Of a stretch of DNA of 58,009 nucleotides, positions 42,417 to 48,500 are shown piece by piece. The notes beneath the pieces were generated by a model. The model was not told the DNA's origin. It saw nothing but the letters and a program-made list of their open reading frames with translations, and ran no database searches. Origin of the DNA: Planctomycetota bacterium (GTDB taxonomy: Bacteria; Planctomycetota; Planctomycetia; JALXBF01); the NCBI GenBank assembly GCA_026981825.1, contig JALSID010000227.1, forward strand, positions 1 to 58,009. Reading direction: 5' to 3'. Made by a program: the position numbers and the translations under genes. The number at the start of each line of letters is the position of its first letter. The stretch's first letter is position 1.

Positions 42417-43067
42417 CTACCACCGGCATTCGGGTGCAGCATCTTCTGGCGGCTTGTCTGGTGCAGGTTCGCTCGAAGCTGTCGCCCCACGCTCGGCCCG
42501 CAAGCGTTCGACTTCTCGCCAGCCGGCATCCGTTAGCTCCCAACGGCCCCGCGGGGAATCGTCACGGAGTAGACCTTCGCGGACCAGGGTAACGCGGCAC
42601 CATGCAACGGTGTTCCTCCACCTCGGGTTGTTCGGCATCGAGCCCACGGGGAGCAGATCGTACTCATTCAGCTCGTCCCGCATGCGTTCCCCGACACGAT
42701 CCGTCACTTCTTTCGCGGTACCGCTGCCCCCAAGCTCGGCCAGAACCTCCAGCAAGGGGCCACGAAACCTCTCCTCGGGCGTCCTCAAACCGCGTTTCAA
42801 TCGTGTGGGACGGCCCTCGCGCCACAGGTACGGAGCCAAAACCGTCTTACGCAGTTCCTCCCACTCCGCCTGCATCTGGCGCAACCGTTGGCGAAAGTCA
42901 GCGAGCCTTTCGCCGGTTGCCATGACCAGCCGCGCGGTATCGTACTCGCCCTGCTTCAGGGCATCTGCCCCCTTTTCGTTGATCGCATCAATGATATCTT
43001 CGACTTCTTCCAGCAGCGACTCAAACGCGACACGAACGTCAAATTCTTCTTGACGCAGCTCGCTCAT
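42417..43067 (-). CDS. Helical N-domain plus Mrr N-terminal-like winged helix; no nuclease domain
   Basis: FRGPLLEVLAELGGSG..RWRNTVAWCRVTLVREGLL..SPRGRWELTDAG matches Mrr_N by eye; GGGGGAGAG RBS before ATG 43067. Confidence 0.8.
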   Translation of the reverse strand: MSELRQEEFDVRVAFESLLEEVEDIIDAINEKGADALKQGEYDTARLVMATGERLADFRQRLRQMQAEWEELRKTVLAPYLWREGRPTRLKRGLRTPEERFRGPLLEVLAELGGSGTAKEVTDRVGERMRDELNEYDLLPVGSMPNNPRWRNTVAWCRVTLVREGLLRDDSPRGRWELTDAGWREVERLRAERGATASSEPAPDKPPEDAAPECRW

Positions 43068-43513
43068 AGGTCTCTCCCCCCACGGGTTCCAGGAACCAGC
43101 TCGCACCAAACACTATTTTGCCCGATCCGGCACCCGCCGACCAGACCCGGGCAATCTGCTCTCAGCCTCTGGCGCCTGACCACCCGACCAACCCGCCGCA
43201 AGAGAACGGGGAACAGTCGCGACCCGGTCTTCGCGCAGAGCCCCCCGGAGTCGTTAGAACGACGCAGCAGGGTTCAAGCGTACGGGCTAGGCCGGCCTTG
43301 CTCGGAGCCTGGCACAACCTGCCCGCTGTTTTCCCCTTAGGAATAGACCCGTACGTAAGGGAGTGCCCCCTGGATGCCGTCAGTCGGTACGATGGGTACT
43401 GGTCCGGTTGCCTGGTGCTGGCTTGCGTAGCGGAACGTCAGATTCTTGTCCGCCAAACGTAGTGCTAATGAAGACCGAAAGACCGGGAGGTGGTCACGAC
43501 GGAGAGTGAGGCT

Positions 43514-45295
43514 ATGTCCGAGAGGAACCATTATCTGCTTACGGCGCTGGGCACGAAGCTCACCCCGACTGAGTACGAGCTAGGTTCGCAACGTGTCCAG
43601 TCGCCCGCTGCACCGCTTGCGCTACTGCAGCTCTTGACCGGGTCCGCCCGTCCGAATCGGGTCGTGGTCGTCCTTACCCCCGGAGCAAAGGCCAAAACGT
43701 GGGATCAGTTCCGGAACGAGTTCGCGCAGCGTCTCGAAGGCAGCGACATCGTGCTGGAGCCTCCGGTGGAGGTACCCGACGGTCGATCGACAGAAGAGAT
43801 TCGCGAGATTCTCCAGAAAGTGGCAGATCGTTTTCGAACTCCCTGTAGGCTTACCATCGACGTAACCCATGGGTTCCGCCACTTCCCCTTCATCGTCTAT
43901 CCGCTCATGCTCTACCTCAGTTCCCTTCGTAACGTGACCATTGAAGGTGCTTACTACGGCATGATCGGTTCACCGGCCGAGGCTGGTCCATGGCCAATCA
44001 TCAGTCTTGAACCACTGGTCCGCCTGCCCGAGTGGTTCTACGGCGTGCGGACTTTCCGTGAATATGGTGTGACCGATGGACTGGGCACCCGGCTAAGCGA
44101 GTTGTTTGACGAGCGCCGCGCCGAGCTCCAGCGGCAAGGTCAGGGAGACCGTATCAGCGAAGAAGCTGCTCCTCTGAGGGAGGCTGCGGGCGCGCTCGGC
44201 TACTTCGGGTCTTTCTATGGCCTGGGGCTCCCACTGGAGCTAGGTCGCGCCGTGCGGCGTGTGCAACTCCGTTCGGAGCAGATCAGGAATTGTCTCGGCG
44301 ATCACGTTCCGCTGGGCGAAGAACTGTTCGAGTTGATCGCAGATTCGCTCACACGGTTTGCGTTCGACCAGGCTCGCGTGCCCAGCTTTAGTGGGGAGTG
44401 GAAGAGAACGGTGCCGCTGGACGGGGAAGAGCTCGAGAGGCAGGCCCGGCTTATCGAGCAGTATCTGAACCGCAGGCAGTTCGCCCAGGGCTTGGCGCTG
44501 TTGCGCGAATGGGTTATTTCCTGGGTGATTTGGCAACGGAGCGAGGAAGCCCACTGGCTGGAGCGAGAGGTTCGGCAGCAAGCGGAACGGTACCTTGGGG
44601 CTGCCGACCGACTGGTGAGGAATGGCGACTCATCTCTTCCCGAAGACTTGCGCGTCCTGGGTGACTTCTGGAACCAACTCACCCAGCTTCGTAACCAGGT
44701 GGCACACAACGGAATGGGACCTGCTGCGGTTGAGATCGATGAGGAGACCATTGCCCCTATAACCGAGCGCTGGAACGAACTGCGGCGAGCGGGCCGGATC
44801 GAGCTGCCCGCGGTCGGTGGCGGCGGCGGCACGGTACTGGTGACGCCGCAAGGCCAGCGGAAGGGGGTTGTGTTCTCCGCGCTAAGAACCGCCGACAAAC
44901 TGGGCCGTGAGGTGAGTCGATGCCTTGTCGTGTGTTCCGAACAGTCGAAGAGCACGCTGAATGAAGCCGCCGAGGCCGCAGGGTTCACCGGCGAGATCAT
45001 CCCCCTTGTCCTCTCCGACCCATTCGCTGGTTTCGACGAACTGGCGCGGATCAGCAAAGAAACGGAGGAGATCGTTCGCGCCGCCGACGAGCTTCTCGCC
45101 AACCTAACCGGGGGCACGACATTGATGGGCATTGCCATCCAAAGGATCGTCGAACAGGCGCAGAGGTGGGCGCGGCCCACCCTACGATTCGCCCTCGTGG
45201 ACCGTAGGCCCGTGGACGAACAATCAGCAGCCCCCTTTGTCGAGAGTGAGTACTACCTTCTCGACGAACAAACGGACGCCACGGAGACGTCGTGA
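43514..45295 (+). CDS. csx1: Csx1-like (DxTHG / TM1812-type) CARF-HEPN ribonuclease with an additional C-terminal CARF-like domain
   Basis: DVTHG at 43859-43873; HEPN R-x4-H motif RNQVAH at 44690-44707; GGGGG linker, then a Rossmann-like domain with NLTGGT at 45101-45118. Confidence 0.8.
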   Translation: MSERNHYLLTALGTKLTPTEYELGSQRVQSPAAPLALLQLLTGSARPNRVVVVLTPGAKAKTWDQFRNEFAQRLEGSDIVLEPPVEVPDGRSTEEIREILQKVADRFRTPCRLTIDVTHGFRHFPFIVYPLMLYLSSLRNVTIEGAYYGMIGSPAEAGPWPIISLEPLVRLPEWFYGVRTFREYGVTDGLGTRLSELFDERRAELQRQGQGDRISEEAAPLREAAGALGYFGSFYGLGLPLELGRAVRRVQLRSEQIRNCLGDHVPLGEELFELIADSLTRFAFDQARVPSFSGEWKRTVPLDGEELERQARLIEQYLNRRQFAQGLALLREWVISWVIWQRSEEAHWLEREVRQQAERYLGAADRLVRNGDSSLPEDLRVLGDFWNQLTQLRNQVAHNGMGPAAVEIDEETIAPITERWNELRRAGRIELPAVGGGGGTVLVTPQGQRKGVVFSALRTADKLGREVSRCLVVCSEQSKSTLNEAAEAAGFTGEIIPLVLSDPFAGFDELARISKETEEIVRAADELLANLTGGTTLMGIAIQRIVEQAQRWARPTLRFALVDRRPVDEQSAAPFVESEYYLLDEQTDATETS

Positions 45296-45466: not shown

Positions 45467-45495
45467 AAAAGGGGCTGGTTTCCAAACCAGCCCCT
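45467..45495 (-). terminator. Strong intrinsic terminator of the giant gene
   Basis: AGGGGCTGGTTT-CC-AAACCAGCCCCT perfect 12-bp dyad; read on the minus strand the stem is followed by a T4 run. Confidence 0.85.
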
Positions 45496-45535: not shown

Positions 45536-48500
45536 CTAGCCACGGGCCCGCCGCACAATGTCCCGTTCCACTGCACGCGAGTCCTTCAGGATCCTGTTCA
45601 ATGTATCGTCGAGGATCAGGTTGTCGATGGCGAGGTCCACGTAGAGGATGTCTCGGCCCTTGCCGTCCTGGATCGTGTCCCGACCGGCACCACCGGTGAT
45701 GATGTCCTTGGCTACACCACCGGAGATCAGGTCGTTACCGGCGCCGCCCGACAGCTCGTCCTTGCCGCCTTCGCCATAGATCTCGTCGTTACCGCCCTGT
45801 CCGGCGACGATGTCGTTACCGCGTCCTGCGAAGATCACGTCGTCGCCGGGGCCACCCAGGATGCGGTCGTGGCCGAAGCCGGTGGGCAACAATTCGTGAT
45901 CGCCGTAGATCAGGTCATCACCGCCCTGACCGCGGAGGCGGTCGTCGCCGTTGTTCCCGATCAGGGTATCGTTGCCGCTCCCGGCGTTGATCGTGTCGTT
46001 CCCCTCACCACCGACCAGGTAGTCTTTCCCTGCCGCTCCGACCAGGACGTCGTTCCCGTCGCGGCCATCGACGTAGTCATCCCCCTGCTCACCGCGGAGG
46101 ATATCGCGACCGGCGCCGCCAAGCAGGCGGTCGTTACCGTAGCCGCCGAAGCTCACCACCCGCTGCGGAACGGCTTCACCGGCTTCGAGCTCGTCGTCAC
46201 CGTCACCGCCGAAGATCATTACTCGCGTCAGCGGTCCCGAACCAAGCACCGCGTCGACCAGCTCGGCGGTGTACGGTGTATCGATGTCCAACCCGCCGCC
46301 GCGGATCAGGATGTCCCGCGGATCGCCGGTGTCAACGCCCGTGCGGATCAGATCGTCGAGGTCGGTGCCGGTGATTTCGAGCCGGCTATTGACACGGTTG
46401 ACCATCTGGGTGATAGCGAGGTCGTAGAGTCCGATGTCGTCCGTACCGCTGGCCGCCGTCACGTGGATCAGGAACTCCTCGCCTTGAGCGGCGAAGAAAT
46501 CGACGCGGTCCGGAGGACAGGCAGCGATCGGACAAGGCAACGGAGTAGTCAGATCGGAGGCACGGAAGACCTCCACGTCCAGGTCGCCGCTGATGGTCGG
46601 ATCGGTGGTGAGCTGGACGGTGACGATCCCGTTCGTGGGGGCAACAAACCGGTACCAGTCGTCGTCGCCGAAGGTTCGGGTCATGAGTTCCACGGCGCCG
46701 CGCACCGACCGCCGGTTGCGGATGACGTAGACGGGCAGAGTCGGTGTCGCAGCCGTGGCCGGAGTATCGTCGCGGGTCGGAGTGCTGTCGAACACATCGT
46801 GGTTGGTGATGCGGAGGCTGTAGGGGCTGGGCCCGGTGAGCGTGGTAATCCGTGCGAAGAACTGTTCGCCGGCGGCATTCACCGGCACAGTAACGCTCCG
46901 CACGCTGCCGCCCCCGGAGGCGGACCCGATAACGACTCCCGAGCTGTTCAGCACCTCAAGCTGCAGATCGGCACGCGCCGGATTCGCCACAGTTATGGTG
47001 AACTGGAACGTTCCCGGTGCTGCCGCGGTGACGCGGAACACGTCCACGTCCACCTGCGGACGGGTCGGGATCGTCAAATCGTCCAAGATCACGTCCACAA
47101 CCCGGCCGTGATCGGTGGCGGTGTCCAGGGTGTCGTTGGGTTCAAACCGATCGGGCACGACCACGTCAAAGACGGCGACGAAGTCGCCACCCGGCACACC
47201 GTCACCACTCGGGAACACTCCGGAGAACTCACCGTCAATCCGGTTGTCCGCAAGATCCTCCAGGCTGGTGTCACCCTCGATCGTGAACGTATAGCTGTCG
47301 TTCGGCAGCGGTGACACAAGCGGGATGACCAGGGTGTTGCCGCTCAAGTTCGACGGGTCGATGATCATCAGGTTCGAGACGTCGCCGCTCAACGCCCCGA
47401 CCAGGCTGAAGTTGGCCGGGATGATAGTCGCCGGGTCGATGTCGTCCGAATCGAAGGTGACAACGATCTGCGTCGGGTTGACGTTCACCTCGGGGTACGG
47501 ATCGAGGTTCGTGACCCGCGGACCGGTAACGTCGACGGTGAACTCCAGCGGGCTAGAGATCGCCACGTTGCCGGCCTTGTCGGTAACCCGCACGCGAGCC
47601 ACATAGTCCCCCTCGGGCAGGGTCGTGTTCACGGTAACCAGGAACGCGCCGTTGGCGTCGGTGAGCACCGTTCCTTCGGTGAAGTCGCCGCCTACCCCCT
47701 CGATGTCCAGCTCCACCGTTAGACCGGTCACGTCCGCCAGGGAATCGAACGGAGCGATATCGCGGACGAGACCGATGAACGTGGGGGTCGTGTCGTTAGT
47801 TCGCCGCACCGGCCGCGGCGTTCCGTCATCTTCGGCCAACTGCAGCGTGACCGTTGGTGCGCTGGTATCCACCTCGATGGTCAGCGCCGGAGGCGGCGCG
47901 AACGCTTCGTTGCCGGCCAGATCCACAACACGGACCTGGACGTCGTAAATGCCGTCCGCCAGCGGCGGATCGACCAGCACGCTCGCAAAACCGCTGGCGT
48001 CCGTGGCGCCGAAACCGTCGTCGAATAGGCCATCGCCGTCCAGTTCGAGGTAGACCAGGTTACCGGCAAGCTGACCCGGGAAGTTGTCGTTCACAGTCAC
48101 GTTTATGTGGGGCTGATCCAGGTTCGTGCGATTGTCGCCGAAGACGCCCGTGTCATCGGTGGGTTCGAGCTCGACGCTGAGGATCGTGGGCGGCTCTGCC
48201 TCGTACACGAACGGCCGCACAAAGTTGCCACCGGGCACTCCGTCACCGCTCGGCAGCGGATTGGCTAGACCGCCCGGCCCCGGGAACTCACCATCCAGCG
48301 CCAGGAAGACCGTGTCCTGCAGCCCGGCACCGCCATAGGGGGACGCGCCGGCGTAGACCGTGAGCTGATACAGGTCGAACACGGTCAGGGTATCGAACTG
48401 GAGTTCGACCTGGCTGCGTGGCTCGAGGCCTCCGCTTGCCGGCAAGATCGTGTGGGTGATGCCGGTAAGCGGAATGATCACATCGTCGGCGGTGTTCAGC

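Follow-up and report, generated by a model that had tools for sequence, protein, structure and literature searches.

A Csx1-Type RNase with a Second, C-Terminal CARF Domain in a Planctomycete Genome with Four Type III CRISPR Modules

Contig JALSID010000227.1 of a Planctomycetota bacterium (GenBank assembly GCA_026981825.1) carries at positions 43514..45295 (+ strand) a gene, here called csx1-CARF, whose predicted product joins a Csx1-type CARF-HEPN RNase to a second CARF domain through a run of five glycines. The window, that is, the whole stretch of 58,009 nucleotides analyzed here, is the complete contig (58 kb; C227) of a 5.25-Mb, 446-contig assembly that is 94.9% complete. Searches for cas10 and cas1 and a scan for repeat arrays returned nothing on this contig, in agreement with an earlier note, made from the DNA letters, that had described the window as free of cas10, cas7, cas6, and arrays. 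The locus raises the question of where an RNase of this type would receive its signal and what its C-terminal domain, hereafter the tail, would contribute. The explanation that we prefer, with a confidence a little above even, is that the protein is a cyclic oligoadenylate (cOA)-gated RNase of the Csx1 family that is unlinked from its type III partners, acts in trans, and carries an attenuator as its tail. The parts of this explanation differ in strength. That a cOA-gated Csx1 RNase serves distant type III systems through cOA synthesis, sensing, and RNA cleavage is the part in which our confidence is high; that the tail is an attenuator of any kind stands at even chances, and the narrower proposal that it truly cleaves cOA is tentative, with the balance leaning against it. 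The observations underneath are the domain architecture, the intact invariant residues, the adjacency of the family to cas10, the type III systems of the same genome, and the existence of stand-alone tails.

Architecture of the protein and its type III partners

The open reading frame on the + strand runs uninterrupted to the stop codon at 45295. Translation from the ATG at 43514 gives 593 codons plus the stop, while an alternative GTG start at 43490 would give 601 residues; the ATG is a reasonable start because homologues align from approximately residue 3-6. An AlphaFold2 model of the whole chain, computed with 61 homologues (mean pLDDT 89.6, pTM 0.79), places two Rossmann-like β/α domains on either side of a long helical HEPN region, the second of them after the glycine run. 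The N-terminal CARF domain, the presumed cOA sensor, spans 43514..44083 (approximately residues 1-190), as judged from TIGR02549 and the strand/helix pattern of the model. It scores 24.1 bits against this NCBIfam DxTHG domain, above the cut-off of 21, and carries its motif II, DVTHG, at 43859..43873 (residues 116-120), which is followed by the invariant R122. A helical insertion (44084..44413, approximately residues 190-300), all-helical in the model, leads from the CARF to the HEPN RNase domain (44414..44803, approximately residues 300-430), which is also all-helical in the model and is recognized by PADLOC and by a fold match; its catalytic motif R393-N-Q-V-A-H398 lies at 44690..44707. The Gly5 tether follows at 44816..44830 (residues 435-439, G439 being invariant and LPxLGGGGG the family consensus), and the tail CARF occupies 44831..45268 (approximately residues 440-585), as delimited by its isolated fold, PDB fold matches, and a profile match. 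The earlier note had read the same order of CARF, helical region, HEPN, Gly5, and second Rossmann domain, and every motif that it named is found where it had placed it.

Because R393, N394, and H398 of the HEPN domain and D116, T118, G120, and R122 of the N-terminal CARF (family consensus D-V-T-Q/H-G-F-R) are each invariant in 61 of 61 aligned full-length homologues, the gene is predicted to encode an intact Csx1-type CARF-HEPN RNase. The N-terminal CARF shows no conserved Ser/Thr at motif I, its G13 being followed by a variable M/T and R/Q/K. The protein matches the PADLOC model PDLC01840, CARF2--CARF_HEPN_CARF, over residues 4-586 (profile positions 3-546 of 547, E 3.1e-127), and two sister models likewise match it end to end. 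The PADLOC Csx1/Csm6 CARF+HEPN model covers residues 6-423 (E 2.5e-61), another PADLOC Csx1 model matches at E 7.4e-50, and TIGR02221, the NCBIfam TM1812/Csx1 equivalog, reaches 67.7 bits, below its cut-off of 76.25, with residues 95-185 alone matched. The PADLOC Csx1 models place it in the wider Csx1 clade, and it falls outside the TIGR02221 equivalog. It is a member of the family PDLC01838-01840, whose three-domain architecture is identical, so the architecture is already catalogued and the function of the family is a prediction. The names used in PADLOC for these families presumably go back to the CARF classification that Makarova et al. published in 2020.

The homologues of csx1-CARF point to type III CRISPR as the setting in which the protein works. 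A word-indexed search returned 212 homologues, and among the 120 listed nearly all are approximately 590 residues long with 95-99% query coverage. In a scan of 185,579 species genomes, we located 43 loci, the majority of them from Candidatus Poribacteria, Latescibacterota, and Planctomycetota, with single examples from Acidobacteriota, Caldilineaceae, a deltaproteobacterium, and Peptococcaceae. Neighborhoods were annotated by phmmer seeded with the Cmr proteins of the source genome and the Cas10/RAMP genes of one homologue locus. Approximately nine in ten of the loci with full 10-kb flanks carry cas10 and RAMP genes, of type III-B or of Csx19-containing type III-D; the only exceptions are L018 and L033, which have no cas10 in these flanks. 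In two planctomycete relatives (L052 and G012/L065), the homologue lies directly upstream of cmr1-cas10, and Cmr1, Cas10, and Cmr3 of L052 are close to the Cmr proteins on contig C280 of the source genome (E 3e-93, 1e-122, and 7e-59). The gene is present in one of 30 related genomes, where it stands beside cmr1-cas10; this carries no information on how it arrived at its present site. The copy studied here is unusual for its family in lying away from any cas locus on its contig.

The partners are found elsewhere in the same genome. Four Cas10 genes, all with GGDD, lie on contigs C280, C78, C110, and C132 and belong to two III-B and two III-D modules. The Cas10 on C280 (575 residues, no HD domain, VYAGGDDVLAF) is part of an operon cmr1-cas10-cmr3-cmr4-cmr5-cmr6 that is followed by a Csx3-like/AAA gene, and that on C78 (876 residues) is accompanied by recognizable cmr3, cmr5, and a cmr6-cmr1 fusion (C78:11873-13909). 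C110 and C132 carry Cas10d-like proteins with III-D-type Csx10/Cas5 and Cas7 genes. CRISPR arrays of 5-32 repeats occur on six contigs, amounting to at least six arrays, and cas1 occurs on two; the cas contigs match the genome in G+C content and tetranucleotide composition. The word orphan, used in the earlier note, therefore holds within the 58-kb contig and fails for the genome, and the complete type III locus elsewhere that the note had named as counting against an orphan is present four times over. We conclude that csx1-CARF is unlinked rather than orphan, because type III systems stand on other contigs of the same genome.

A constrained CARF tail and its free relatives

When the tail was folded alone from an 18-sequence alignment, it adopted a six-stranded Rossmann-like topology (pLDDT 89.8, pTM 0.86). 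At E <= 1e-3, 28 of 29 PDB fold matches are CARF domains, the exception being the Rossmann domain of a hydrogenase (3lyu). The ranking is led by TtCsm6 (E 1.6e-5, TMq 0.59), Cam1 (7e-5), and Sso2081 (7ygl; 1.6e-4, TMq 0.53), followed by Sis0455 (7z55; 3.3e-4), Can2 (3.9e-4), and Card1 (1e-3), so that by predicted fold the tail appears as near to sensor CARFs as to ring nucleases. Against solved structures, the tail profile reaches only Can2 (8bao, E 4e-4), and against PADLOC it is strong only to its own family (E 2.7e-35) with weak matches to Can1, CARF4, CARF1, and CARF-2TM. It finds no Crn1/CARF7, Sso2081, or Sis0455 match (PDB, E <= 10; PADLOC, E <= 1). The earlier note had proposed a comparison with Crn1, Crn3, Csx16, and Csx20; besides the missing match to Crn1, the PDB profile and PADLOC searches show none to Csx16, Csx20, or Csx3, and these together with the fold searches give no match to the Crn2, Csx3, Csx16, and Csx20 families. 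The possibility that the tail is a duplicate of the N-terminal CARF was rejected, as hhalign gives a probability of 0.3%. The tail is thus a genuine and strongly constrained CARF. The label Crn1-type, which the earlier note had based on resemblance to a Crn1 motif, is unsupported because N-x-T-G-G-T is the generic motif-II region after strand β4 that is common to most CARFs and not a Crn1 signature.

To count conservation, the 149 best tail representatives were aligned to the profile; 105 of them are fused and 11 short, from clusters at 50% identity. Motif I, V-T444-P-Q-G447 (44840..44854; [S/T]-P-x-G in the family), follows strand β1. Of the 105 fused representatives, 102 have S, T, or C at position 444 (S 65, T 22, C 15), 103 keep G447, and all 105 keep G451. 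Motif II, N530-L-T-G-G-T535-T536 (45101..45121, residues 530-536), contains no lysine, and the fused counts are N 95, T 102, G 105, G 105, T 99, and T 96. Downstream, the block D563-R564-R565...Q570, then P574 and an aromatic residue at 575 (45200..45226), is similarly fixed, with D563 and R565 in 105 of 105, Q570 in 103, and P574 in 104. Other nearly fixed loop positions are S475, D502-P503, G506, E509, N530, T532-G-G, and the aromatic 575. A pattern of this kind suggests a constrained pocket, not a decaying or purely structural domain, and an atypical one without the lysine.

In Sso2081, motif I is G9-T10-S11, of which S11 positions the attacking 2'-OH, and motif II is G104-R105-K106, in which R105 is needed for binding and K106 stabilizes the intermediate or transition state; the nondegrading Can2 and Card1 retain the motif-II lysine and lack GTS (PMC10018336). 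The tail motif T444-P-Q-G447 also carries a hydroxyl, but its sequence context differs from the Crn1 G-T-S. At positions 535-536, the equivalents of R105-K106, threonine is found in 99 and 96 of the 105 fused representatives, and K or R in 0 of 105 fused and 0 of 11 short ones. Residues of the D563-R564-R565...Q570 block are candidates for phosphate or base binding in place of the missing lysine. The tail may plausibly cleave a nucleotide, or it may sequester or merely sense one; all three agree with its sequence.

The tail also exists on its own. A HMMER scan of 1.84 billion representative sequences with the tail profile yielded 506 clusters at 50% identity, 440 of them at E <= 1e-10, and most of the tail-bearing clusters are fusions of 560-610 residues. 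The stand-alone homologues are 144-165 residues long, with the Met directly at strand β1 and no Gly tether. One of these (P0255) stands directly after cmr5-cmr6 and before cas6; the gene of a second (P0188) shares 10 bp with the end of a gene for a 418-residue Csx1, which aligns with residues 3-425 of our protein at 34% identity, and the pair reads as a split version of the fusion; a third (P0230) is preceded by 400 bp of sequence that is not Csx1. Because stand-alone tails sit in type III operons, a regulatory function of the module that can be exerted in trans is favored, and a CARF without an effector that is kept in cas operons resembles, by analogy, ring nucleases and other signal regulators.

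Two further matches that hit only the C-terminal CARF (L054 and L055) were rejected as stand-alone genes, since they are truncated remnants of approximately 90 residues without the first half of the domain. These remnants, L054:1370-1651 in a gammaproteobacterial metagenome-assembled genome and L055:9944-10216 in one from Latescibacterota, lie directly upstream of cmr1/cas10 and adjoin differing accessory genes, as if effectors in the place upstream of cas10 had been exchanged and these pieces left behind. At a type III-B locus, a HicA/HicB toxin-antitoxin pair (L058:2672-3339, - strand) lies between a stand-alone tail-CARF gene and cas6.

Sensing, attenuation, and the alternatives

In the scheme that we propose, one or more of the four GGDD Cas10 complexes of the genome would make cOA on target RNA. 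The signal would probably be cyclic tetra-adenylate (cA4), because Csx1, Can2, and Csx3 are cA4-linked families (PMC11229360, PMC12409355), and cA4 activates Csx1 enzymes (PMC11229360). In a Csx1 homodimer, the two N-terminal CARFs would bind this cOA, and binding would open the composite HEPN site (R393/H398) for nonspecific cleavage of single-stranded RNA. The two C-terminal CARFs, held by their Gly5 tethers, would likewise pair into a further pocket for a nucleotide and attenuate the signal there. They could do so by cleaving cOA, in which case the protein would contain its own ring nuclease with a chemistry other than that of Crn1, or by sequestering cOA, and they would thereby provide a threshold and an off-switch. 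Dimerization like that of other Csx1 enzymes, the identity of the ligand, and its degradation by the tail are the steps that we infer. A division of labor between sensing and attenuating fits the N-terminal CARF, which has no conserved Ser/Thr after G13, a pattern that is also reported for Csx1-Csx15 fusions (bioRxiv 10.64898/2026.10.26.761840). The suggestion in the earlier note of a likely cOA-gated RNase with an extra nucleotide-binding module is supported.

Fusions of an effector to a ring nuclease do have precedent, as the earlier note had stated, in Crn2 (PMC7293037, PMC11317161) and Csx15 (bioRxiv 10.64898/2026.10.26.761840). Marinitoga Csx1-Crn2 is the best match to our whole chain among solved structures, both by sequence profile (E 1.8e-12, identity 13-14%) and by fold (8y6z and 8y7g; E 1.5e-15 for 8y6z, approximately 550-630 aligned columns); its CARF-HTH fragment (8y75) was also found in the fold search (E 1.4e-9, approximately 300 columns), and TtCsm6, ToCsm6, and Sso1389 come next. 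The two proteins share a CARF-HTH-HEPN chassis (HTH, helix-turn-helix) and an extra C-terminal domain that handles, or in our case would handle, cOA (PMC7293037, PMC11317161). The Marinitoga tail, however, is Crn2/DUF1874, of unrelated fold and with proven cA4 cleavage, whereas the tail here is a CARF whose cleavage activity is putative. Csx1-Csx15 (bioRxiv 10.64898/2026.10.26.761840) and the catalogued Csx3, Csx16, and Csx20 fusions (PDLC01842-01844) combine a CARF of their own without the ring-nuclease motif with a C-terminal quencher, the folds and families of which differ from our tail. The models PDLC01842-01844 match our protein far less strongly than PDLC01840 does (E 1.6e-10 to 3e-36, compared with 3.1e-127), mainly in the Csx1 part, and the Csx20-fusion model reaches residue 527.

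Single CARFs offer other comparisons. The Crn1 enzymes Sso2081 (7ygl) and Sis0455 (7z55) (PMC10018336, PMC9638899) resemble the tail in being small CARF folds (TM approximately 0.5) with a Ser/Thr after β1, though in differing sequence contexts, and the stand-alone tail relatives are of about Crn1 size and are likewise found within type III loci; Crn1 and the tail nevertheless have no sequence-profile relationship, and Crn1 has G-R-K where the tail has G-T-T. TtCsm6 (TTHB152; 5fsh, 8jbb, 8jbc), the best fold match of the tail, senses and degrades cA4 with the same CARF (PMC10897365), whereas two unrelated CARFs are present here, which suggests divided jobs. Two CARFs per chain are also found in Can1 (6sce) and Csm6-2 (9w3u), but theirs pair into one pseudo-symmetric site within the monomer. 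In our protein, the CARFs are separated by the HEPN domain and Gly5, and one HEPN per chain means that a homodimer would be needed.

Several points weigh against the explanation that we prefer. By sequence, the tail is nearest to nondegrading sensor CARFs (Can2 and Can1), and it lacks the motif-II Lys/Arg that degrading and nondegrading CARFs alike use for binding of cOA or for catalysis (PMC10018336); cA4 may therefore not be what it binds, or cleavage may not follow. C280 already encodes a Csx3-like candidate ring nuclease, which makes the need for another off-switch less evident. The assembly is fragmented, and unlinked here stands for a separation from the ends of the contig of at least 12.5 kb on one side and 43 kb on the other. 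Finally, we found no biochemical or structural study of the CARF2--CARF_HEPN_CARF family in the literature that we searched, in which the string CARF-HEPN-CARF turned up only for the different CARF-HEPN-CARF-HEPN protein Csm6-2.

Some of these points would fit a tail that acts as a second allosteric sensor for the same or a different nucleotide, such as another ring size or A2>P, and that tunes or licenses the HEPN domain without degrading its ligand. We regard this as unlikely, while still giving it real weight. The sensor CARFs among its nearest sequence relatives (Can2 8bao; Can1, CARF4, and CARF-2TM in PADLOC) argue for it, a lysine-less motif II together with the invariant D-R-R...Q...P block suggests a nonstandard ligand, and four Cas10 enzymes of two subtypes could emit different signals. 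Yet a stand-alone tail without an effector domain would have no output for pure sensing, and every known C-terminal fusion to Csx1 adds a quencher, be it Crn2, Csx15, or the catalogued Csx3, Csx16, and Csx20. It seems improbable to us that the domain attached to Csx1 is instead a ring nuclease of the true Crn1 type (CARF7). The Ser/Thr-Pro after strand β1, present in most members, is consistent with this idea, and we take it to resemble G-T-S-P-G of Crn1. The fold matches to Sso2081 and Sis0455 are consistent with it too, but they reflect CARF fold similarity and are not specific to Crn1, which TtCsm6 and Cam1 outrank by fold. Profile matches to Crn1/CARF7 models are absent, and the equivalents of R105-K106, both functionally required in Crn1 (PMC10018336), are never K/R.

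The missing canonical lysine could also be taken to mean that the tail binds nothing and is a structural or oligomerization module or a decayed CARF. We consider this slightly more improbable still, because surface loops that are nearly invariant over 105 clusters of 50% identity or less are typical of a pocket and because stand-alone tails are retained in cas operons. The least probable alternative, to which we give very little credence, is that csx1-CARF is independent of CRISPR and answers a non-Cas10 signal, CBASS-like or other. A contig of 58 kb with no cas gene, and the two homologous loci (L018 and L033) without a nearby cas10, would agree with it. The genome, on the other hand, holds four Cas10 cyclases, and type III loci surround approximately nine in ten of the homologues with full flanks. 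A search of the genome for SMODS/CD-NTase, a CBASS-type cyclase, found none, and the other signal source that the earlier note had offered as an alternative is unsupported; a search for SAVED domains also gave no match, but it gave none in control genomes either and is uninformative.

The tail and its stand-alone relatives of 144-165 residues may form a new CARF clade or family of type III signal regulators, a proposal that we make tentatively and would sooner question than assert. Its signature would be [S/T]-P-x-G, C/T-S, D-P-x-x-G, N-x-T-G-G-T-T with no lysine, and D-R-R-x4-Q-x3-P-[YWF]. Such a clade would represent either a ring nuclease with a chemistry unlike that of Crn1, arginines of the β5/β6 region taking the place of the motif-II lysine, or else a protein that soaks up or senses a nucleotide other than cA4. 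Joined to Csx1 it would operate in cis, and as a free protein in trans. Type III CRISPR signaling needs to be switched off to spare the host, and Csx1-quencher fusions are known, those with Crn2 and Csx15 having been studied. The CARF-HEPN-CARF family is large (506 tail clusters) and common in sponge-symbiont and planctomycete genomes. With an extremely conserved pocket that lacks the lysine, and with free forms encoded in cmr operons, it is a promising candidate for one more family of ring nucleases or regulators. The locus alone would not surprise a specialist. A cOA effector kept intact far from cas loci in a genome with four Cas10 proteins fits a sharing of effectors in trans across type III modules, which has also been raised elsewhere (PMC11229360).

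Other cOA-related genes and the surroundings of csx1-CARF

Further candidates for cOA-responsive proteins are scattered over the genome. Directly after cmr6 on C280, a 533-residue protein (C280:7117-8715, + strand) matches Csx3 and Csx3-AAA weakly (E 1e-7 to 2e-4) and, with an apparent P-loop region, is a candidate Crn3-AAA-type ring nuclease for this III-B locus. A 5'-open reading frame at the start of the same contig, upstream of cmr1, was considered as a csx1-CARF remnant and rejected, its translation being of low complexity and without similarity. Matches of the Can2/Card1 type (CARF-PD-DExK) are found at C132:2287-3288 (- strand), C306:390-1391 (- strand), C67:3584-4564 (+ strand), and C140:19142-19492 (- strand), the first of them just beyond the III-D operon of C132. 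These matches indicate several dispersed putative cOA effectors. The III-D module on C132 also includes very large fused Cas5/Cas7 proteins of 765-804 residues. On the 6.1-kb contig C35, a decayed HEPN remnant of approximately 135 residues from a second Csx1-like gene (C35:3189-3676, - strand) has R-E in place of R-N and one in-frame TAA; it lies between unrelated genes, and an open reading frame at C35:4685-5710 appears by eye to encode a transposase-like helix-turn-helix protein.

Around csx1-CARF itself, no mobile-element borders, repeats, or composition shift were detected. Its neighbors encode oxidoreductases, ApbE, an FGE-sulfatase-like protein, a sigma-54 activator, a glycosidase-like protein, and an adhesin of 4114 residues, and the genes at 29-42 kb are of housekeeping type. 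Divergent from csx1-CARF, the gene at 42417-43109 (- strand) encodes a protein of 230 residues whose N-terminal half is a coiled coil and which carries an Mrr_N winged-helix domain (E 3.6e-15) but no nuclease domain. As a conserved partner it was rejected, since it is missing from all 43 related loci and lacks a paralogue elsewhere in the genome. On the other side, the convergent gene at 45536-57880 (- strand) encodes the 4114-residue protein, which has RTX-like C-terminal repeats. Between the two convergent genes lies a G+C-rich hairpin (45470..45495) that resembles a terminator by consensus match only, with an 11-pair stem and a T-rich tail on the - strand.

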